Under the pieces are notes generated by a model. That model made no database searches, was not told where the DNA came from, and was given only the letters and a program-made list of their open reading frames with translations. Positions 9,559 through 20,771 of a stretch of DNA of 64,000 nt are shown here, in pieces; the stretch's first letter is position 1, and each line of letters begins with the position of its first letter. Origin of the DNA: an uncultured Alphaproteobacteria bacterium (lineage in GTDB: Bacteria; Pseudomonadota; Alphaproteobacteria; Sphingomonadales; Sphingomonadaceae); contig CAVSFG010000006.1 of NCBI GenBank assembly GCA_963727345.1, forward strand, positions 651,142 through 715,141, read 5' to 3'. The position numbers were made by a program, and so were the translations under genes.

Positions 9559-10260
9559 TTAGCCCGCCGCGTCGGCATCCAGCGCATAACCAGCCGAGCG
9601 CACGGTCCGGATCAGGTCGGCGCCCGCCAGTCACATTGATCGCCTTGCGCAGACGGCGAATATGAACGTCAACGGTCCTGAGCTCGATTTCGCTGTCGCG
9701 GCCCCAGACGGCGTCGAGCAGCCGTTCGCGGGAGAAAACGCGGCCCGGATGTTCGAGGAAATGGCGCAGCAACCGGAACTCGGTCGGCCCGATCGAGATC
9801 GGCGTACCGCCGCGCCGCAGTCGGTGGCTCACCAGGTCCATCTCGATATCGGCATAAGCGCAGCTTCTCGCCCGCCAGCGCCGGCCGCATCCGGCGCAGC
9901 ACCGCCGAGACCCGCGCGACCAGTTCCTTCGGCGAGAACGGCTTGGTGATATAATCGTCCGCGCCGGTCTCGAGGCCGCGCACCCGGTCGGCCTCCTCGA
10001 TCCGCGCGGTCAGCATGATGATCGGCACGTTGGCCGTCTCGGGCAGCCGCCGCAGCCGCCGGCACACCTCGATCCCCGAGACGCCCTCGATCATCCAGTC
10101 GAGGATCACCAGGTCCGGCGGGCTTTCCCGCGCCATCAGCAACGCATCCTCGCCGTCGGCGGTCGCCTCGACGGTGAACTCCTCCCGCCGCAGATTGAAG
10201 GTCAGGAGCTCGACGAGGGCGCTGATCGTCCTCGACGAGCAGGATGCGGCCCTTGCTCAC
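9559..10260 (-). CDS. phoB: Phosphate regulon response regulator PhoB (frameshifted)
   Basis: ILLVEDD, LDWM, GADDYITKPFS and RTVDVHIRRLRK; follows phoU. Confidence 0.9.
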
Positions 10261-10975
10261 GCCTTGTCGCCGATCTGGCCGGCGTTGATCTCGGTCGTGT
10301 CCGCGCCCTTCGCCCGATCGCCGAGATGCCGGCCGGTCGAGGCGAAATAGACCATCTCGGCGACATTGGTCGCATGATCGCCGATCCGCTCGAGATTCTT
10401 GGCGACGAACAGCAGGTGCGTCGCCGGCGTGATGTTGTGCGGATTTTCCATCATATGGGTGAGCAGGGCGCGGAAGATCGAGTTGTAGAAATCGTCCACC
10501 GCCGCGTCGCGCTCGCATACCGCCTGCGCCTTGGCGGCGTCGCGCTGGACGAAGGCGTCGAGCACGTTGTGCACCATCTCGCCGGCGATCCGCGCCATTT
10601 CGGGCAGCAGCGACAGCGGCCTGATCTTGCTGTCCTCGACGCTTGCGACCCGCTTGGCGATGTTCTTGGCATAATCGCCGATCCGCTCGACCACGCCGGC
10701 GATCTTCAGCGCCGCGACCACTTCGCGCAGATCGTCGGCCATCGGCGCGCGCAGCGCGATGATCTGGACGGCGCGGCGCTCGACCTCGGCCTCCAGCGCA
10801 TCGATCCGCGCGTCGCGCTCGATGACCCGAGCGGCGGCGTCGGCGTCGCGCTTGACGAGCGCCTCCATCGCCTCGGCGGATCGCCGCTTCGGCGAGGCCG
10901 CCCATCTCCGCGATGGTGGCGCGCAGCGCGTTCGAGTTCCTCGTCGAACGCCTTGATCGTGTGGCCTGTCGCCAT
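10257..10975 (-). CDS. phoU: Phosphate signalling protein PhoU (frameshifted near N-terminus)
   Basis: HTIKAFDEEL; ERIGDYAKNI and ERIGDHATN repeats. Confidence 0.92.
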
Positions 10976-10985
10976 ATCGCTCTCC

Positions 10986-11732
10986 TCAGCCGTAGCGGCC
11001 GGTGATGTAGTCCTTGGTCCGCGTCTCGCGCGGATTGGTGAAGATCTCCGAGGTCTCGCCATATTCGACGAGATCGCCGAGGTGGAAGAAGGCGGTCCGC
11101 TGCGAGACGCGCGCCGCCTGCTGCATATTGTGGGTGACGATGACGATCGCGTAGCGGCCGCGCAGCTCGTGGATCAGCTCCTCGATCTTGGCGGTGGCGA
11201 TCGGATCGAGCGCCGAGCAGGGCTCGTCCATCAGGATCACCTCGGGATCGACCGCGATCGCGCGGGCGATGCAGAGCCGCTGCTGCTGGCCGCCCGACAG
11301 AGCCGTGCCGCTTTCCTGCAGCCGGTCCTTCACCTCTTCCCACAGGCCGGCCCGCCGCAGCGAGCGCTCGACGATCACGTCCATCTCGCTCTTGTTCGCG
11401 GCGAGGCCGTGGATGCGGGGGCCGTAGGCGACATTTTCGTAGATCGACTTGGGGAAGGGGTTCGGCTTCTGGAACACCATGCCGACCCGGGCGCGCAGCT
11501 GCACGACGTCCATGTCGGTGCCGTAGATATCCTCGCCGTCGAGCTCGATCCGCCCTTCGACGCGCGCCGACGCGATCGTGTCGTTCATCCGGTTGAGGGC
11601 GCGCAGGAAGGTCGATTTGCCGCAGCCGGACGGCCCGATGAAGGCGGTCACATTCTCCTGGCGGACCTCGATCGATACGTTATCGATCGCCTTCTTCTCC
11701 CCATAGAAGACGCTGACATTTCGTGCCGCCAT
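10986..11732 (-). CDS. pstB: Phosphate ABC transporter ATPase
   Basis: [26 protein letters not shown] and DYITGRYG. Confidence 0.95.
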
Positions 11733-11759
11733 CTTGGGGCCGGTAGGGTTCAGTGTCGG

Positions 11760-13040
11760 TCACCAGCGCCTCTCGAAACGGTTGCGGAGATAGATGGCCA
11801 AGCCGTTCATCGCGAGCAGGAACAGCAGCAGGACGATGATCGCGGCGCTGGTCTTTTCGACGAAGCCGCGGCTGACCTCGTCGGACCAGAGGAAGATCTG
11901 GACCGGCAGCGCGGTCGCGGGATCGGAGATGCCGCCGGGCGGCGAGGCAATGAAGGCGCGCATGCCGATCATCAGCAGCGGCGCGGTCTCGCCCAGCGCG
12001 CGCGCCATGCCGATGATCGTGCCGGTGAGGATGCCGGGCAGCGCCAGCGGCAGGACATGGTGGAAGACGACCTGCACCCGGCTCGCGCCGATCCCCAGCG
12101 CGGCGTCGCGGATCGAGGGCGGCACCGACTTGATCGCGTTGCGCCCGGCGATGACGATCACCGGCATCGTCATCAGCGCCAGCGTCAAGCCGCCGACGAT
12201 CGGCGCCGAGCGGGGCAGGTGCATGAAATTGAGGAACACCGCCAGCCCCAGCAATCCGAAAATGATCGACGGCACCGCGGCGAGATTGTTGATCGAGACC
12301 TCGATGATGTCGGTCCAGCGGTTTCGCGGCGCATATTCCTCGAGATAGACCGCCGAAAGCACGCCGATCGGGAAGGCGAGGATCAAGGTGACGATCATCG
12401 TCAGCAGCGAACCCTTGAACGCGCCCCAGATGCCGACGAGGGTCGGATCGGTGGAATCTGAGCCGGTCAGGAAAGCCCAGTTGAAGCCGGTGCGGATCGC
12501 TCCCGCGGCGTTCAGCTGCTCATATGAGCGTTCGGCATCGGCAGTCCCGTCGCTCTTGGCGGCGATATCGATCGCGGTCGCGGCGGGCAGCCACAGAGTG
12601 GCGCGGCCGGCAAGGATGTCCGGATCGGCGCGCACCGCGTCGCGCAGGCGAAGCCGGGCGCCGCCGGAGAAGAGCGCTGCTCCCTGCGGACCATATTGCG
12701 CCGTCGCCGCTTCGGTCACCACACGCTCGAAATCTGCATTGGCGAGCGCCTGATCGGCGCCGAAGCCGCGCAACGCAGCGGGATCGAGGAACAGCGACGA
12801 GCGCGGAAAATCAACTTCCAGCCGCACCTCGGACTGGGTGAAACCGCGGGCGCCGTTGCCGATCATCGTGACGAGGAGGAAGATCAGGAAGCCGACCGAG
12901 ATCAGGATGGCGGCGAGGCCGAGCAGCTTGAACCGCCGCTCGGCGGCGTAGCGGCTGCGGATGCGCGCGCGCATCATTTCGCCGCCCCAGTCGGTCGGCG
13001 TCGGATCGATCGAGTCGGCGCGGAGCGAGGCGTCACTCAT
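11760..13040 (-). CDS. pstA: Phosphate ABC transporter permease PstA
   Basis: YLEEYA, NLAAVPSII and ARALGETAPL. Confidence 0.93.
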   Translation of the reverse strand: MSDASLRADSIDPTPTDWGGEMMRARIRSRYAAERRFKLLGLAAILISVGFLIFLLVTMIGNGARGFTQSEVRLEVDFPRSSLFLDPAALRGFGADQALANADFERVVTEAATAQYGPQGAALFSGGARLRLRDAVRADPDILAGRATLWLPAATAIDIAAKSDGTADAERSYEQLNAAGAIRTGFNWAFLTGSDSTDPTLVGIWGAFKGSLLTMIVTLILAFPIGVLSAVYLEEYAPRNRWTDIIEVSINNLAAVPSIIFGLLGLAVFLNFMHLPRSAPIVGGLTLALMTMPVIVIAGRNAIKSVPPSIRDAALGIGASRVQVVFHHVLPLALPGILTGTIIGMARALGETAPLLMIGMRAFIASPPGGISDPATALPVQIFLWSDEVSRGFVEKTSAAIIVLLLFLLAMNGLAIYLRNRFERRW

Positions 13041-14425
13041 AGGCTTCGCGATATTTCTTCACGACGCGCAGGGCGACGATGTTGAGCGCCAGAGTGACTA
13101 GGAACAGCACGAAGCCAAGCGCGAAGGCCGCCAATGTCTTGGGCGAATCGAACTCCTGATCGCCGGTGAGCAATTGGACGATCTGGGTGGTGACGGTGGT
13201 CACGCTGGCGAAGGGGTTGGCGGTCATGTTGGCGGCAAGGCCCGCGGCCATCACCACGATCATCGTCTCACCGATCGCCCGGCTGACCGCCAGCAGGACG
13301 CCGCCGACGACGCCCGGCAGGGCGGCGGGGACGAGCACCTTCTTGATCGTTTCGCTGGTCGTCGCGCCCATCGCCAGGCTGCCGTCGCGCATCGCCTGTG
13401 GCACCGCGGCGATGCTGTCGTCGGCCATCGACGAGACGAAGGGGATGATCATGATCCCCATCACCAGCCCTGCGGCGAGCGCGCTCTCGGTGGAAGCGGG
13501 AATGCCGAGCGAAAGGCCGAGATCGCGGATCGCCGGCGCCACGGTAAGCGCGGCAAAATAGCCGTAGACGACGGTCGGCACGCCGGCGAGGATTTCGAGG
13601 ATCGGCTTTAGCCAAGCCCGAACCCGGGGCTTGGCATATTGGGTGAGGTAGATCGCGCTCATCAGGCCCAAGCGGAATCGCGACGATCATGGCGATAATC
13701 GCGCCGATGAAGATCGTGCCCCAGAAGAGCGGAATTGCGCCGAACGCACCCGACGACCCGGCCTGATCGGCGCGGATCGCCATTTGCGGGCTCCAGGTCA
13801 GACCGAACAGGAACTCGATCGGCGAGACCATCGAGAAGAAGCGCAGCGATTCGAACAATAGCGAAAGGACGATGCCGAGCGTGGTCAGGACCGCGATCAG
13901 CGAGGCGAGCAGCAGCACCGCCATCATCACCCGCTCGACCCGGGTGCGGGCGCGGAATTGCGGGGAGAGGCGGCTGAACGCCCAGGCGCCGCCGGCGAAG
14001 GCGACCAGCATCGCGACCGCGAAGCCGATCCAGTGGTAGAAGGCGAGGGCGCGGGCATAGACCGGCGCCAGCGCGAACGCCTCGCGGTTGAACGCGGTCG
14101 TCGAGGCGCCGGTCGCGAGCGCATGGGCTTCGTTGAGGATCGTCGAGCGCTGCATCCCGAAGCCGGGCAGGTTCGCCGCCTCCGGGCTGGCCAGCACCTG
14201 CGCATAGACGAGGTTGCCGGAAACATTCTGCCAGACGACCAAGAAGAGCGCCGCCGGCACGACGGTCCACAAGGCGACATACCAGCCATGCTGGCCGGGC
14301 CGCGAATGGGGCCGTTCCTTGGTGGCGCCGCCGATACCGGCGAAGGCCGCCGCGCGCGCCCGTCCCGAGAGCCAGGCAACCAGCCCCAGCCCCGCGACGA
14401 GCAACGCGATGACGGCGATCGACAT
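13033..14425 (-). CDS. pstC: Phosphate ABC transporter permease PstC (frameshift near 13670)
   Basis: ILAGVPTVVYG and SRAIGETMIV; N-terminal part in ORF 13268..14425. Confidence 0.92.
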
Positions 14426-15496
14426 TTACCGCGGTTGGAGATCGCGCACGGTGATCGGCCGCGGGCTGCGCACCGCCTGCTCGGCGGCCTGCCGCTCATT
14501 GTCCGGCAGCGCGATCATCCCGCGCTGGGTGAGATAGCCGCCCGGCCCCCAGCCTTGGGTCCAGGCGGTGAGGAACTCGCGCAGGCCCGGAATGGCGTTC
14601 AGATGCTCGCCCTTCACGTAGATGTAGAGCCGGCGCGCGCCCGGATAGGTGAAATTGGTGATCGTCGCCGAGGTCGGCGCGACGCCGCCGATCGGGATGC
14701 CGCGTACCCGCTCGCCATTCTCCTCGAGGAAGGAATAGCCGAGGATGCCGATCGCGCCCTGGTTTTCGGACACGCGCTGGACGAGCAGATTGTCGTTCTC
14801 GCCCGCCTCGATATAGGCGCCGTCCTCGCGCAACTGGGTGCAGATTGTGCGATGGCGGTCGCTGTCGCTGGCCTTCAGCCGCTCCATCGCCGGATCGCTG
14901 TCGCAGCCGCGCTCCAGGATCAGCTCGGCGAAGCTGTCGCGCGTGCCGGAGGTCGGCGGCGGGCCGTAGACCCGGATCGGGACCGCGGGCAGCGCCGGAT
15001 TGACGTCGCGCCAGGTCTGCGCGGTCTGCGGCCGGCCGAAGGGATTGGCGGCGAGCGCGGCGTAGATATCGCGCGCGGTCAGCTGGAAGCCGGTCGACCG
15101 CGTCGCCGATTCGATCAGCGCCAGGCCGTCAATGCCGACCGGCACCTCGATGATCTGGTTGACGCCGTTGCGGTTGCACTGCTCGATCTCGGTCGCCTTG
15201 ATCCGCCGCGAGGCGTTGGCGACGTCCGGATGCTGCGGACCGACGCCGCCGCAGAACAGGTTGAGACCGCCACCGGTGCCGGTCGATTCGACGATCGGCG
15301 ATTGGAAGCTTGGATTGGCCTGGGCGAAACGCTCGGCAACCGCAACCGCGAAGGGGTAGACGGTCGAGGAGCCGACGACGCGGATCTGGTTGCGGGAGCC
15401 GCCTTCGGCGCTGCCGGTCGGGCCCGAGCCGCAGCCGGCCAGCAACAGGCCGGCCGCCATCAATGCCATGAGTGTCTTGCGCACGTGCCCCTCCAT
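14426..15496 (-). CDS. pstS: Phosphate-binding lipoprotein PstS
   Basis: LLAGC lipobox; GSSTV, STGTGGG and SGTRD motifs. Confidence 0.92.
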   Translation of the reverse strand: MEGHVRKTLMALMAAGLLLAGCGSGPTGSAEGGSRNQIRVVGSSTVYPFAVAVAERFAQANPSFQSPIVESTGTGGGLNLFCGGVGPQHPDVANASRRIKATEIEQCNRNGVNQIIEVPVGIDGLALIESATRSTGFQLTARDIYAALAANPFGRPQTAQTWRDVNPALPAVPIRVYGPPPTSGTRDSFAELILERGCDSDPAMERLKASDSDRHRTICTQLREDGAYIEAGENDNLLVQRVSENQGAIGILGYSFLEENGERVRGIPIGGVAPTSATITNFTYPGARRLYIYVKGEHLNAIPGLREFLTAWTQGWGPGGYLTQRGMIALPDNERQAAEQAVRSPRPITVRDLQPR

Positions 15497-15550
15497 GAGT
15501 CGCGATAAGGTTGGTAAGCTGCGAAACTAGGTCGCTCCAGAGAGTCCCCT

Positions 15551-15579
15551 GTGACGCTTCGATGACAGGTTGATGACAG
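15551..15579 (-). promoter_or_regulatory. Pho box upstream of pstS
   Basis: Minus strand CTGTCAT-caac-CTGTCAT-cgaa-GCGTCAC with 11-bp periodicity, matching the PhoB consensus. Confidence 0.9.
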
Positions 15580-15592
15580 CACCACCGATCGC

Positions 15593-16793
15593 TCAGAAAT
15601 CGAGCTGGGCGCGCACGCCGATAACATCGACGCCATAGTCCCGCCGTCCGCCCGCGGCCGGGATCGCGGCATCGTCATAAGACAGACGGGCATAATTGAT
15701 GAGGAAGCGGACATAGTCGGTCGGGATCCAGGTCAGGCCGAGCTGGAGACCGTTCTGGACGCCGCCGATGATCCCCTGCGAATTGAGATCGAGATGGTCG
15801 TAGCGCAAGTTGAGCTGGACCGCGCCGAAGCCGCCTTCCTCGATCGCGCGCCGGACGCGAGTCCGGTCCCAGCGGGCGCCGCGATAGCCGCGCGTCTCGC
15901 CGGTCAGGAACCAGCCGACCTCGACATAGCCGCCGAAGAAGCTTGGATCGGCGCCGGTGACCGCGGTCGGCGTTCAGCCAATGCGCCTCGGCGGCGAAAT
16001 GGAACGGGCCGCGGATCGCCGCCGCCTCGAGGCCGAAGCTCGTCTCGCTGTCGACATCGAGCGCGGGCGTCGCGAGGAAGCGCGCGTCGGTGGCGTGGAT
16101 CAGCGGCCGCTGCCGGTAGCGGGTCGTGGTGCCGCGCGCGACGAGATCGCCATTGTCGCGCCAATGCGCCGACGCGGCGAGGTGAAGTTGGGTGTCGCCG
16201 AGCCGCGGCGCATAGACGATCCGGCCATCGACGCTCAGCATGTCGTCGCCTTCGTCGACATCGAGCAGATTGTCGTGGAAGATGCCGAGCTGCGCGGTCA
16301 CCGGGCCGCTGGTCAGTGTTCGCCGAGAGCGCCGAGCCGGCGCTCGAAATCGAAGGCGTCGGTGAAAGCGGCCCGCTCGATGAACGAGATGAAGCGCGAC
16401 GCTGGTCAGCTCGTCGAGCGACTGGAAATTGTTGTGCTGGCCGGCGGTCATGGTCAGCCGGTCCGAGGCGCGCCAGGAAATCGCCGCGTCGGTGATCTCG
16501 TCGACCGCTTCGGAAAGCTCGACCTCGAAGACGATAGGAGAAGCCGCCGCGGCGCGGTGCCTTCGACGCCCAGCCGGGCCCGGCGGAATTCGTCGACCGA
16601 GCCGAGGCCGGCGGCGGCGACGCCGTCCGGCGCCGAAACATCGCCAACATCATATTGAAGGCGGCCGCGCGGCTTCAGCGACCAGCCCGAGGTCGAGCCA
16701 ATGCGCGGCGCGCCGGCGAAGCGGGACGACGAATCCTGGGCGAAGGCCGGGGGCGGCGAGGCCGAGCAATGTCGCGAACCAGAGCAGCCTCAC
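15593..16793 (-). CDS. Phosphate-selective porin, OprO/OprP family (several frameshifts)
   Basis: GTG start after gggaga; signal peptide; RYRQRP segment; C-terminal RAQLDF beta-barrel signature; lies inside the pst module. Confidence 0.8.
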
Positions 16794-16839
16794 CGGATTC
16801 TCCCGAACAGAATCATGACGGAATGGCTACGTCTTTGAT

Positions 16840-18070
16840 TCAGTTTCGTGACTCTTCCGTGACAGTCGCGAGCGGCAACAGAACACGGGCGATCGTTCCT
16901 TCGCCGACGGTGCTGGCGATCTCGAGCCGGCCGCGATGGCGCTGGACGATATGCTTGACGATCGCGAGGCCGAGCCCGGTGCCGCCCACCTGCCGGCTGC
17001 GGCTGGCGTCGACGCGATAGAAACGCTCGGTGAGGCGGGGCAGGTGCTCGGCCGCGATTCCCTCGCCTTCGTCGATCACCGCGACCGACAGCATGTCGCC
17101 TTCCGCCGGCGAGAGCCGCACCCGGATCGGCCGCCCGGCGCGGCCATATTTGATCGCATTGCCGACGAGGTTGGCGAGCATCTGGACGAGCTGGGCGCGA
17201 TCGCCCTGAACGACCGCCCGCGGCGCGTCGTTTTCGATGACCAGAGTCGCATCTTGTGCGGCGATCGTTTGCGCAAGCGCGTCGCGCACCTCATTGATGA
17301 CGTCCTCTAGGTCGACCGGCGCGCGGGGCGCGCGCGAATCGCTCCGCTTCGATCCGCGACAGCGACATGAGATCGTCGACCAGGTCGCGCATCCGGGTCG
17401 CTTCGCCCGACATGATGCGAAGGAAGCGCGAACGCGTCTCGGGATCGCTCGCCGCCGCCTCGTCCTCCAGCGTCTCGAGGAAGCCAAGCAGGGTCGCGAG
17501 CGGAGTGCGCAGCTCGTGGCTGGCGTTTGCGACGAAGTCGACGCGCATCTGCTCTGCCGCCCGCGATCCACCCTGATCGATCAGGCGAACGAGCTGGCCG
17601 CCGTCCGGCAGCAGCCGCAAGCGCATCAGCCACGGGCGGCCGGCCTCGCCGAGGCCGACGATCTCGATGTCTTCTGTGCCTCGCTCGCTGGACTCGCCGG
17701 TGAGGCGCTCGGCCGCGGCGGGGTGGCGGATGGCCAGACGCACGTCGACGCCGTCGATATGGGCGCCCAGCAGTTCCTTGGCGGCCGCGTTGGCGCGCAG
17801 CACCCGCCGGTCGCGGACGAGCAGGACCGGTTCGTCAAGCGCCTCGATGAGATCATCCAGCCGCAGCGCGACGGGCGCGGGCCCGTCGTCGGCCGTCACG
17901 GCGGGGGCCGTCGCGCTCCGGCCCGGCCAGGCGATGGCGCCGACGACGAGCGCGGCGGTCAGCGCGGCGAGGCTCGCGACCGGCGGTGCGCCCAGCCACC
18001 AGGCCAGCCCGCTGCCGCCGACCGCGGCCAGCGCGGCGAAGAGCGCCCGTGTCAGCTGGTCACCTGTCAT
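16840..18070 (-). CDS. phoR: Phosphate regulon sensor histidine kinase (frameshift near 17330)
   Basis: H-box FVANASHELRTPL, N-box NLVGNAIKY, G-boxes DEGEGI and GGTGLGL; two N-terminal TM helices. Confidence 0.88.
16848..16865 (-). promoter_or_regulatory. Pho box upstream of the porin, embedded in the 3' end of phoR
   Basis: Minus strand CTGTCAC-ggaa-GAGTCAC with 11-bp spacing, about 55 bp before the porin start. Confidence 0.65.
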
Positions 18071-18164
18071 CCCGATCCGTCCCGATGCGGCACGGACCCA
18101 TGGTCCCGCTCGCCTTCGCCGCGCTTTACCCTTAATAAATCGTGCGAGTGTATCGGAATTTCCC

Positions 18165-18566
18165 ATGAGCGGCGCTGACGAGCCAAAGCCTGACGATGCG
18201 TTTCAGCCGAGCCGGCGCAGCTTCCTCTATTTGGGAGCCGCGGCGGCCTCGACGGTCGTCACCATCCGCCCCGCCCTCGCCCAGACGGCGGGCTCGGTGC
18301 TGAGCTGCGAAATCCCGGTGCCCGGACCGCATGCCGCCGGCAATTATATCGCGCCCGACGGGACGACGGTCGCGCCGGGCACGGCGGGCGCCTCGCCGCC
18401 GCTGACGCGGCCGTTGCGCGGCGAGGAGGCCCGGATGCTGCTGCGCGGTTCGACGCCGCCCGGCGTCAATCCCGGCTCGTCCCAGGCCTACGCCAATTAT
18501 ATCCGGCGGCTGCAGACGGGGATGAGCGGCTTCACCTGCTACGCCTCGCTGCAGATGCCGCGTTAA
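18165..18566 (+). CDS. Twin-arginine signal hypothetical protein, candidate substrate of the downstream modification cassette
   Basis: SRRSFL Tat motif, hydrophobic stretch and PALA|Q cleavage site; two Cys (VLSC, FTCYAS); 133 aa. Confidence 0.7.
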   Translation: MSGADEPKPDDAFQPSRRSFLYLGAAAASTVVTIRPALAQTAGSVLSCEIPVPGPHAAGNYIAPDGTTVAPGTAGASPPLTRPLRGEEARMLLRGSTPPGVNPGSSQAYANYIRRLQTGMSGFTCYASLQMPR

Positions 18567-18582
18567 GTTAAGACGCCCGGCC

Positions 18583-18859
18583 ATGGCCGGTCCCCGCTAC
18601 ATCGCCGACCTCAGCCGAGGATGTGCGGATCGTCGCGCTCGACGGCCTGTCGGTGCTCTATCACGCGCCCTCCGGCATGACCCACATCGTCGCGCCGCCC
18701 GCGCCCGAGATTCTCGAAGCGCTTCAGCCCGGGGCCGCCGACATCGCCGAGCTGATCATGCGGCTGCGCTCCCGCTACGAGCTGGAAGGGGATGCCGATG
18801 ATATCGTCGCGCTGCGCCTTGCCGAGCTCGAGCAGGCGGGCTTGGTGCGCCGCGCATGA
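18583..18859 (+). CDS. PqqD-family / RiPP recognition element chaperone (HPr-rel-A type; frameshift near 18610)
   Basis: About 90 aa; LYHAPSGMTHIV...EILEAL...LAELEQAGLV is the PqqD three-strand/three-helix pattern. Confidence 0.8.
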
Positions 18860-19722
18860 GACACAGCCTCGCCTTGCGGATCGGGCCGGTCGGTTTCCGG
18901 GTCGGCTCGGCCTGGGCCGGGCCGATCCGGACACTCGCCGCGCTCTATGACGGCTATCCCGAACCCGAGGACGGCATTTGCGATTTCACCGTCCGGCTGG
19001 AGCCGCAACGGCCGTGGCGGCGCTGGCTGCGCCCGTCGGTGGCGATCCGGGGCGATTATATCCTCCCCGACGCCGCGCCGCTGCCGCTCGCCATGGGTCT
19101 GCTCGCCGCCGAAATGGGGATGAACCTGCAGATGGCGCTGGGGCAGAAGCGCTATCTGCTCCTCCACGCCTCGAGCGCCGAGAAGGATGGCCGCGCCCTG
19201 ATCATGACCGGTGAATCCGGCGCCGGGAAATCGACCTTGTCGGCACTGCTTGGCGAACGCGGCTGGCGGCTGATGGGCGACGAGTTCGCCTTGCTCGATC
19301 TCGCCGACGGCGGCCTTCATCCCTTTCCGCGCGCGATCAGCCTGAAGAACGGCGCAATCCGAGTGATGGAGAACGAGGTCGCGGCGGACCGGTTCGGCCC
19401 CCGACTGGAAGACACGCCGAAGGGCGTGATCCGCCATCTTCGCCCCAACGCCGCGGCGATCGCCGGCATGGGCGAGAAGCGCGAAGCCGGCTCTGATCCT
19501 TTTCCCGCGCTTCGGCCGGCCGGCGGAAGCGCGCCCCGTCGGTCAGGCCGAAGTCTTCATGCGGCTGACCCAGGCCTCGACCAATTATGTCACGCTCGGC
19601 GCGGCCGGGTTCGAGGCGCTGACCGGTCTGGTCCAGAACTGTCCGGCCGCGGCGATCGACTATCCGGACACCGACGAGCGGCATCGGATCTGGTCGAAGA
19701 GCTTTGGCAGGCGGCGGCATGA
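18856..19722 (+). CDS. HprK-related kinase A (two compensating frameshifts near 19480 and 19680)
   Basis: LLLHAS, Walker A GESGAGKS, LMGDEF and PFPRAISLKN. Confidence 0.85.
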   Translation: MRHSLALRIGPVGFRVGSAWAGPIRTLAALYDGYPEPEDGICDFTVRLEPQRPWRRWLRPSVAIRGDYILPDAAPLPLAMGLLAAEMGMNLQMALGQKRYLLLHASSAEKDGRALIMTGESGAGKSTLSALLGERGWRLMGDEFALLDLADGGLHPFPRAISLKNGAIRVMENEVAADRFGPRLEDTPKGVIRHLRPNAAAIAGMGEKREAGSDPFPALRPAGGSAPRRSGRSLHAADPGLDQLCHARRGRVRGADRSGPELSGRGDRLSGHRRAASDLVEELWQAAA

Positions 19723-20771
19723 GCGCCGGCGCGGCTCCTCGTACGCGCGCTGCGCGATCCGGCGTCGGCCAAGGGCTGCGACTGGCCGGCGCTGATCGCC
19801 GCGGCGCGGGCGGAGCGATTGCTGGGCAGTCTCGCCTACCGGCTGGAAGGGCAGGACGTGCCGGCGCCGGTCGCGCGCATCCTCGAGGACGCACGGCGCG
19901 ATGCGGCGCAGGCGCGCACCCAGGCGCTCTGGGAAGCGGAGATGGCGCGCCGCGCGACCGCGCATCTCGGCGTCCCGGTCGTCCTGCTCAAGGGCACCGC
20001 CTTCCACGCCGCCGATCTCGACGCCGCGCGAGGGCCGCTCGGTCGGCGATCTCGATATTCTCGTGACCCGCGAGTCGATCGAGCTGGTCGAGAAGGCGCT
20101 CGTCATTGCCGGCTGGGAACGGCTCAAGGAGGAGGGCGGCTATGACGACATCTATTATCGCCGCTGGATGCACGAGCTGCCGCCCTTGATCCATCGCGAG
20201 CGCGACCGGATGATCGACGTCCATCACACGATCCTGCCGCCGACCGCTCGCCCGACGCCCGACGCCGCCGCGCTGATCGCGGACAGCGTCGCGCTGCCGA
20301 ATGGCCTGCGCATCCTCTCGCCGGCCGACATCATCGTTCACGCCGCCGCGCACCTGTTCGCCGACGGCGATCTCGCCGGCGGGCTTCAGGAACCTGTGGG
20401 ACATCGACCGGCTGCTGCGCCAGTTCGCCGCCGATCCCGCCTTCTGGCCGGCGCTCGCGGCCCGCGCCGCGCATCACCAGCTCCGCCCGCATGTCGCCCG
20501 CGCCCTGCGTCTTTCGGCGCGGCTCTACGGCACGCCGGTCGACGCCGCGCTCGCCGGGCGGGCGCGCTTGAGCGACCGCCTGTTCGAGGCGCGGCTGCTG
20601 GCCCGCAACGGCTGGGGGCAGGAGACCCGCAAGGCGCTCCGCTTCGCTTTCTACGTCCGCTCGCACTGGCTCAGGATGCCGCCGCTGATGCTGGCGCGGC
20701 ATCTCTGGACCAAGGCGCGGCCGGGGACTGGCATATCGCGCCGGTCCATGCCATCCGCGAGCCGTGTCTAG
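19719..20771 (+). CDS. Nucleotidyltransferase family protein (NTP_transf_5-like; frameshifted)
   Basis: VVLLKG, RSVGDLDILV and IDVHH motifs; ATGA overlap with the kinase. Confidence 0.8.

Follow-up and report, generated by a model that had tools for sequence, protein, structure and literature searches.

The stretch analysed here, referred to as the window, is a 64,000-nucleotide segment of contig CAVSFG010000006.1 from an uncultured alphaproteobacterium of the family Sphingomonadaceae. It carries a small gene, P0001, whose product combines an N-terminal leader of the twin-arginine translocation (Tat) type with a 94-residue mature domain. Directly downstream and on the same strand lie genes for a PqqD-family peptide chaperone, which represents a recognition element (RRE) for peptides that are made on the ribosome and modified after translation (RiPPs), an HprK-related kinase A (HprK_rel_A) and a nucleotidyltransferase of the NTP_transf_5 family. 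The first-pass annotation had described P0001 as an orphan and as the putative substrate of a modification system. Comparative genomics supports the second proposal, and suggests that P0001 is most likely the cognate partner and substrate of the three adjacent genes. The gene and its parts are arranged as follows.

18165-18566, plus strand: precursor gene P0001, 133 residues plus stop, with a Tat-type leader followed by a 94-residue mature domain (translation, homologues and alignment A4)
18165-18209, plus strand: acidic N-region, residues 1-15, MSGADEPKPDDAFQP (read from the translation)
18210-18227, plus strand: twin-arginine motif S-R-R-S-F-L, residues 16-21 (read from the translation)
18228-18281, plus strand: h-region YLGAAAASTVVTI and c-region RPALA, residues 22-39, with a predicted signal peptidase I site A37-L-A39/Q40 (the slash marks cleavage)
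18282-18563, plus strand: mature domain, residues 40-133 (alignment A4 and AlphaFold2 model)
18294-18296 (S44), 18306-18308 (C48), 18537-18539 (C125) and 18546-18548 (S128), plus strand: conserved residues of the mature domain

The translation begins with an acidic segment from M1 to D11, followed by the motif S16-R17-R18-S19-F20-L21, an uncharged and weakly hydrophobic stretch from Y22 to I34, and the basic c-region R35-P-A-L-A39/Q40; the uncharged run after the arginine pair spans 16 residues. The mature part starts with QTAGSVLSC48 and ends with SGFTC125YAS128LQMPR, and contains the only two cysteines of the protein, C48 and C125. The initial description of the protein (acidic N-region, SRRSFL, weak h-region, PALA/Q site and two cysteines) thus agrees with the translation, apart from the start of the mature part, which had been placed at T41 and would instead lie at Q40. 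P0001 is a real conserved gene and no chance open reading frame (ORF), since it is conserved over its full length and is the sole match to a hidden Markov model (HMM) of the cassette leader among the 40,932 six-frame ORFs of the genome. It scores 43.9 bits as a member of the training set, against 10.3 bits for the next best ORF, and the ordinary Tat signals of this genome score below 10.3 bits. Nor is it an orphan: its homologues form 2,979 clusters at 90% identity, the named ones from Sphingosinicella or Allosphingosinicella, and share 63-94% identity across the genus. The gene is present in 33 of 36 same-genus genomes and in none of 24 sampled genomes that represent other families of the order.

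In an alignment of 37 family members (A4), residues C125, S128, G119, G122 and Y112 are invariant, and S44, C48, I50, V52, P53 and T124 are conserved in at least 90% of the sequences, so that the cysteine and serine motifs singled out at both ends of the mature part are conserved. The alignment and the AlphaFold2 model indicate that the entire 94-residue mature part is conserved within the family and partly folded. The model, computed from the family alignment, is of moderate confidence (mean pLDDT 60.6); residues ~57-119 form a hairpin plus two helices at pLDDT 75-84, and the leader and both cysteine-bearing ends are modelled with low confidence. Searches of P0001 against Pfam and NCBIfam gave no family except borderline Tat-signal matches, and fold searches with the model in Foldseek-PDB and VIA-wide returned no match above E=1 or Z=2.9. 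The ESM Atlas returned unnamed clusters only, and its weak leads (0.88) are other Tat-exported small subunits, matches that are probably driven by the signal peptide. As both cysteines are conserved, a C48-C125 disulfide is plausible in the P0001 family. Such closure by a cysteine pair appears to be specific to this family and no general feature of the system; short-core relatives bearing the same leader have no cysteine at all.

The three genes downstream of P0001 were assigned by family models.

18583-18859, plus strand: PqqD-family peptide chaperone (RRE) of the HPr-rel-A system (TIGR04353, 58 bits against a cut-off of 35)
18856-19690 (end approximate), plus strand: HprK-related kinase A with the P-loop GESGAGKS (TIGR04352)
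19618-20771 (start approximate), plus strand: NTP_transf_5 nucleotidyltransferase (PF14907, 72 bits against a cut-off of 31.2)

The stop of the PqqD gene overlaps the start of the kinase gene. The kinase matches TIGR04352 with 178.9 bits over model positions 1-204 and, in another frame, with 48.9 bits over positions 200-275, against a cut-off of 200. A sequence search of the PDB gave no significant match for the PqqD gene, and the kinase profile matches HprK structures weakly.

In all 20 same-genus loci examined, the order is precursor, PqqD and HprK. Synteny among close relatives is weak evidence, and the sampling was widened for this reason. A search for TIGR04352 in 301 alphaproteobacterial genomes drawn across families gave 16 genomes that exceed the cut-off or, like the present one, nearly reach it. 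By eye, 11 of the 13 loci with sufficient upstream sequence have a short ORF directly upstream of PqqD that combines an acidic N-region with RR(R)x(F/L/I)L and the strikingly conserved block AAPVxxTLxSxPxxA. A broader leader HMM found a leader ORF in 14 of 14 evaluable loci and resolved both apparent exceptions, the leader ORF lying upstream in locus L029 and, in L033, in convergent orientation just after the transferase gene. Moreover, 80 named loci were recruited via the kinase alone, from Sphingomonadales, Burkholderiales, many Gammaproteobacteria, and metagenome-assembled genomes of an Acidobacteriota and a Gemmatimonadota member. A single leader-HMM match of at least 11 bits is found in 70 of these 80 loci, with all other ORFs below 10.5 bits; it invariably shares the strand of the kinase, and nearly always ends 300-500 nt before the kinase. 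Inspection revealed weaker-scoring leader ORFs in two more loci (L123 and L126), and four loci cut off upstream were left out of the evaluable set. The remaining four, of Sphingopyxis type, have no local leader ORF, a MarR gene preceding PqqD instead; each of these genomes carries exactly one strong leader copy elsewhere (32-36 bits), which belongs to the P0001 family and is divergent from phoR. Altogether, one leader-bearing gene is present in all 76 evaluable cassette genomes, adjacent in 72 and unlinked in four, and leaders beside the cassette occur in Alpha-, Beta- and Gammaproteobacteria, Acidobacteriota and Gemmatimonadota.

As for the enzymes, the PqqD gene abuts HprK in 77 of the 80 named loci and NTP_transf_5 adjoins HprK in 79, with no other gene conserved across the 80, including no dedicated peptidase or exporter. 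Gene order inside the cassette is not absolutely fixed: the leader gene follows the transferase gene instead of preceding PqqD in L087 (6433-7104), L097 (7990-8856), L144 (3426-3695) and L033 (3484-3732, minus strand, convergent). The Sphingopyxis-type genomes (L067, L068, L070, L072 and L132-L135) provide a natural unlinking of substrate and enzymes.

The association also holds in the reverse direction. A leader profile built from 49 sequences, run against the 301 genomes, gave 10 matches of at least 35 bits, all 10 adjacent to HprK_rel_A; below a clear gap, the rest reach at most 25.7 bits and fall on large ordinary Tat proteins, so that this leader type was not found in the 285 cassette-free alphaproteobacterial genomes. 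The three same-genus genomes without P0001 (87-96% complete) likewise lack HprK_rel_A. In metagenomes, nine loci were collected by leader peptide patterns only, and HprK_rel_A is present in all seven that have room for neighbours, with 120-395 bits on contigs that are in part cut short. The leader profile, searched against 1.84 billion representative proteins, matched at least 2,786 clusters at 50% identity (E<=1e-3), nearly all 52-290 residues long with the leader at the N-terminus. The top match of this search, P0124 with 2,981 residues and 26 matched stretches, is probably an artefact of repetitive or low-complexity sequence. The counts have to be read with the relatedness of the genomes in mind, as these are non-independent samples. 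Training of the leader HMMs used cassette-adjacent sequences, which inflates the scores of training members; the 301-genome reverse test, the metagenome loci and the Sphingopyxis genomes include sequences outside the training set. Locus L025 (genome G300, flagged unpublished) accounts for a single row in each of alignments A1 and A5 and for one of the class-sample loci, and no conclusion hangs on it. Taken together, the leader is a distinct subtype exclusive to the HprK_rel_A cassette.

These results bear on the simplest alternative, in which P0001 is an ordinary Tat-exported periplasmic protein that stands beside the cassette by inherited gene order only. In Sphingomonadales the gene stays divergently paired with phoR even in genomes in which the enzyme genes lie elsewhere, indicating that part of the local order is plain synteny. 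Against this explanation, however, across phyla only genomes with the cassette have the leader subtype, loss of the precursor goes along with loss of the cassette, an unlinked precursor copy is retained where the two are separated, and the same leader stands on unrelated cargo. We therefore consider inherited order alone to be very improbable. Chance adjacency was likewise rejected, by the reverse leader test, the co-loss and the unlinked retention.

The leader of P0001 is close to the limit of the curated Tat-signal models. It scores 16.5 bits with TIGR01409, against a cut-off of 16.7, and 19 bits with PF10399 (E=9.5e-4), against a cut-off of 24. With its motif, the complete signal anatomy, these borderline matches and the TatC encoded in the genome (223.8 bits), it is predicted to be a Tat signal. 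The arginine pair is present in all 70 related precursors, and across the precursor families R18 is invariant and R17 is conserved in at least 90% of the sequences. The N-region of these 70 has a median length of 27 residues with 5 acidic and 2 basic residues, and the uncharged run after the arginine pair has a median of 15 and a minimum of 12 residues. The c-region frequently contains a basic residue and position -3 is small; every one of the 71 precursors in an HMM-anchored alignment has Ala or Gly at position -1. The h- and c-regions share the cassette-specific consensus AAPVxxTLxSxPxxA. Beyond the predicted cleavage site, the same alignment has a cysteine at 3-9 residues in 69 of the 71 precursors. 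The first 12 residues after the site contain 23% Ser/Thr, compared to 16% elsewhere, and 8.2% Cys, compared to 2.0% elsewhere.

The borderline scores could also mean that the leader is an RRE recognition sequence that merely resembles a Tat signal, and that the modified product is kept in the cell, or is exported by another route after cleavage by another protease. Several features past the Tat consensus, namely the long acidic N-region and the conserved PVxxTLxS block, would fit this explanation, and known RRE leaders do not function as export signals, as in the linear polyphosphorylated peptides (LPP) of Bacillota (Popov et al., Nat Commun 2026; PMC13381572). Nevertheless, an arginine pair followed by at least 12 uncharged residues in 70 of 70 precursors, together with the frequent basic residue of the c-region, Ala or Gly at -1 and a small residue at -3, amounts to the full architecture of a cleavable Tat signal. 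Across the 80 loci no other exporter or peptidase is conserved, and the signal-peptidase-I-type leader peptidase of the Bacillota relatives fits the AxA site found here. A leader devoted to RRE recognition only is thus unlikely in our assessment. The comparative data instead give strong support to the idea, raised already in the first-pass annotation, that the Tat signal doubles as the RRE-binding leader, which would explain why peptidase and exporter genes are missing.

The same leader precedes unrelated mature parts, with at least three cargo families. Family 1 is the P0001 type of Sphingomonadales, with its 94-residue mature domain. Family 2 has a domain of ~180 residues and occurs in Beta- and Gammaproteobacteria and some Alphaproteobacteria (L085-L131, for example L101:4951-5631; also L021, L025 and L026), with the motif C-x3-S-x3-S-G-N-x-S...C-x-G-x-S-P-G-Y-W...H-x-V-A-A-L-L-N-A...W...I..YL. 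Its model is confident (pLDDT 75, pTM 0.69), and no match was found among Pfam, NCBIfam or PDB folds. The third group has Ser/Thr-rich cores of 10-35 residues, often Cys-free, for example ...SRPAWG/NSGTTNDSALTTSNFQSPST. Such short cores are common among leader-bearing relatives; these precursors adjoin HprK_rel_A in metagenome contigs and represent genuine peptide-sized forms of the P0001-type system. Peptide-sized cores are seen in P0139, P0154, P0184, P0185, P0204, P0214 and P0241 and in loci L136-L139 and L143, several of them with a 'PQP' motif. For 20 other precursors, too, Pfam and NCBIfam yielded nothing except borderline Tat-signal matches. The expectation that only the leader and the cysteine-bearing ends would be conserved thus applies between families, where it stands, and fails within the P0001 family, the mature part of which is conserved throughout. 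The conserved leader and variable core that define a RiPP precursor are both present, with recognition by the RRE presumed, whereas the 94 residues of P0001 exceed a short core.

Large, conserved and folded mature domains in two families leave room for another explanation, in which proteins of the P0001 type are partners of the cassette and not its substrates. The PqqD protein might, for example, hold them and time their export; alternatively, they could act in the periplasm as effectors while the enzymes act on another molecule, for instance a polysaccharide or lipid. In favour of this explanation, the cassette adjoins glmU-glmS in Sphingomonadales, and in Bacillota the LPP clusters sit in polysaccharide loci, with no activity on the peptide for their nucleotidyltransferase LppN in the sole published test (PMC13381572). 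The glmU-glmS adjacency, however, is a synteny of Sphingomonadales only. The element common to all precursors is the leader plus a Ser/Cys-rich junction, with cargo ranging from 10-residue peptides to 200-residue domains, a range for which a shared role other than that of substrate is hard to conceive. Furthermore, for those homologous kinases that were tested, the target of phosphorylation is the leader-bearing peptide itself. We regard a partner role without modification as improbable. A functional tie to glmU-glmS was likewise rejected, its adjacency being confined to Sphingomonadales among the 80 loci.

The preferred reading is that P0001 is the precursor, and thus the substrate, of a four-gene cassette of precursor, PqqD, HprK-related kinase A and NTP_transf_5. 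Including the mechanism outlined below, we hold it to be probable on comparative grounds. A leader exclusive to the cassette, its many unrelated cargoes and the lack of a peptidase or pump together suggest that the PqqD-type RRE reads the leader on behalf of kinase and transferase. In the cytoplasm, the PqqD protein would bind the cassette-specific part of the leader, that is, the RR motif and the h/c-region of AAPVxxTLxSxPxxA type, and hand the precursor to the kinase, which would phosphorylate Ser/Thr near the junction of leader and mature part. The likeliest acceptors in P0001 would be T41 and S44, just past ALA/Q, and S128 is a less likely candidate. The nucleotidyltransferase may then extend the phosphate with a sugar or a nucleotide-derived group. 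This chemistry is inferred from studied relatives, namely the LPP kinase LppK, the lasso peptide kinases and the hexose-adding enzyme PsmN. Afterwards the leader would serve as a twin-arginine signal, with TatABC exporting the decorated and partly folded protein and ordinary signal peptidase I removing the leader at ALA/Q. As Tat and signal peptidase I would do both jobs, it would follow that no dedicated peptidase or exporter is encoded.

Several observations weigh against this proposal. With the curated Tat-signal models the leader reaches no more than borderline scores (TIGR01409: 16.5 bits, cut-off 16.7). The mature part of P0001 is partly folded and more conserved than the PqqD gene (63-94% compared to 45-72% identity), and a conserved domain of 94 residues appears unlike the hypervariable core of a classical RiPP. 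Lasso kinases act on a C-terminal serine, but P0001 ends in Arg. The role of the transferase is uncertain, given the published inactivity of LppN. Finally, the PqqD, kinase and transferase genes are frame-broken in this assembly, and if these breaks are real, the system would be dead here. The PqqD gene is probably frame-shifted near 18610, its intact frame starting at a GTG at 18623 and its N-terminus MAGPRYIAD sitting in a different frame, unlike in relatives. A frame map against the intact gene of L069 shows the kinase gene to be split near 19490. The nucleotidyltransferase gene changes frame near 20033 and again near 20385, and its three pieces align with the intact L069 gene at 60-82% identity. 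Within 16840-20771 of the window, phoR is also frame-broken, at ~17330, and the precursor gene, glmU and glmS are intact. Since the break points fall at or beside short homopolymer runs and the genome assembly consists of 6 contigs at 84.8% 'complete', the frameshifts in phoR and the cassette genes are probably long-read assembly errors.

A more specific version of the proposed mechanism, which we advance tentatively as a possibility, casts the PqqD-type protein as a 'proofreading' chaperone of Tat export. The Tat signal itself would be recognised by the RRE and released to TatABC only after a (poly)phosphate or phosphoglycosyl group has been placed beside the cleavage site. Tat proofreading chaperones (redox enzyme maturation proteins, REMPs), such as TorD, DmsD and NapD, are small cytoplasmic proteins that bind a Tat signal until the cargo is matured. 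They serve cofactor insertion into redox enzymes and have no PqqD/RRE fold; the likeness to the PqqD-type protein is one of concept, and no relation in sequence emerged, although none was looked for. If this version is correct, it would represent a general Gram-negative export route for phospho-decorated peptides and whole folded proteins, comprising thousands of precursor families with no dedicated protease or pump, and would blur the boundary between RiPPs and post-translationally modified secreted proteins.

The HPr-rel-A cassette has so far been named but substrate-less in genome annotation. Its exclusive Tat-type leader now provides a candidate substrate for every such locus, so that enzymes without an assigned target become a pathway open to direct testing. 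Should the mechanism prove right, a Tat signal would for the first time be seen to act as a RiPP-type leader, and the newly described polyphosphorylated-peptide chemistry would extend from Bacillota to Gram-negatives and to folded proteins. Periplasmic or secreted proteins with phospho or phosphoglyco decoration would then form a further, new class, which might play a part in the envelope or in biofilms.

Upstream of P0001, a divergent block of the Pho regulon is followed by conserved intergenic DNA.

9800-18112, minus strand: Pho-regulon block comprising pstS, pstC, pstA, phosphate-selective porin O/P and phoR
18079-18160, plus strand: conserved intergenic DNA from phoR to the precursor gene (alignment of 10 upstream regions from the genus, the sister genus and Sphingopyxis)
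18079-18093: near-palindrome GTCCCGATGCGGCAC, of the GTCCCG-N4-CGGGAC type
18123-18139: conserved upstream block GCTTTACCCTTAATAAA
18148-18160: conserved upstream block GTGTATCGGAATT

One of the blocks follows the pattern GCTTTACCCTTA(T/A)TAAA, and the blocks are common to the genus and the sister genus and partly to Sphingopyxis. They look like a promoter or operator; inspection by eye gave no obvious Pho box in this intergenic region. The gene for the phosphate-selective porin looks fragmented. The pairing of precursor and phoR is kept throughout Sphingomonadales, which raises the question of whether this putatively phosphorylated exported protein is phosphate-regulated. On the other side of the cassette, glmU and then glmS follow the transferase gene. 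Near the precursor gene, the window encodes neither a peptidase or ABC exporter nor a lasso cyclase or B2 protease.

Among known systems, the downstream genes are assigned to the HPr-rel-A system of NCBIfam (TIGR04352 and TIGR04353). As curated, it names enzymes only, with no NCBIfam or Pfam model covering any of the precursor families. In the papers searched, neither the system nor its accessions are mentioned, and the cassette is not described. A precedent for RiPP-like precursors with a general export signal in place of a classical leader, and with no dedicated peptidase or exporter, is provided by the bufferins/DUF2282 precursors, which have Sec signal peptides and an MNIO enzyme with a DUF2063 RRE (PMC11626156, PMC12710340). 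They differ in using Sec rather than Tat and MNIO-type chemistry, and in that reading of the signal peptide is not attributed to their RRE (PMC12710340). Unlike in bufferins, the signal-like leader is the only conserved element of the P0001 system.

The phosphorylated and phosphoglycosylated lasso peptides (paeninodin with PadeK; pseudomycoidin with PsmK and PsmN) share with the P0001 system an HprK-type kinase, a nucleotidyltransferase of PF14907 type and a leader-bearing ribosomal peptide. The HprK homologues of lasso clusters phosphorylate a serine of the linear precursor, and PsmN adds hexoses to the phosphate (PMC8498205). Compared to these systems, the cyclase and B2 protease are absent from the 80 loci and from the neighbours in the window, and P0001 has no C-terminal serine. 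Two related candidates were rejected on these grounds. One is a degenerate lasso cluster, as neither cyclase nor B2 protease is found anywhere in the same loci and neighbours. The other is a C-terminal serine as the target, as P0001 ends in ...QMPR and Ser is the last residue in only 5 of 70 precursors.

The nearest known system is LPP of Bacillota, which consists of the precursor LppA, the RRE LppB, the HprK-like kinase LppK, the NTP-transferase LppN, the signal-peptidase-I-like (SpI-like) peptidase LppS and the MsbA-like exporter LppD (PMC13381572). The LPP precursors have 35-200 residues, conserved at the N-terminus and variable at the C-terminus. LppK attaches several phosphates to Ser3 of the core; the signal-peptidase-I-like enzyme, with the aid of the RRE, cleaves off the leader, and does so poorly when the precursor is unphosphorylated (PMC13381572). 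LPPs are described as restricted to Bacillota, and the words 'Tat', 'twin-arginine', 'Proteobacteria' and 'Pseudomonadota' are absent from the paper (PMC13381572). Both systems have a stand-alone RRE, a kinase of the HprK-like type and an NTP transferase with no lasso cyclase, a conserved leader before variable C-termini, and leader removal of the signal peptidase I type, which is predicted in the P0001 system. The phosphorylated serine of LPP lies 3 residues past the cleavage site, compared to conserved Ser/Thr at +2 and +5 in P0001. The leaders differ, with the motif YxxPxVLxHQxIxFETxxS in LPP and a twin-arginine type leader (RRxFLK, h-region and AxA) here. Moreover, the LPP cluster encodes an SpI-like (SipW-type) peptidase and an MsbA-like exporter, neither of which is conserved in the 80 loci. 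The hosts are Bacillota for LPP and Gram-negative phyla for the P0001 system, the cargo of which in the present case is a conserved 94-residue domain. Because three features of LPP, namely the leader motif, the dedicated peptidase and the exporter, are not shared, the P0001 system, known here from its genes, is not filed as an LPP. It is instead probably a Gram-negative, Tat-leader variant that works in the manner of LPP.

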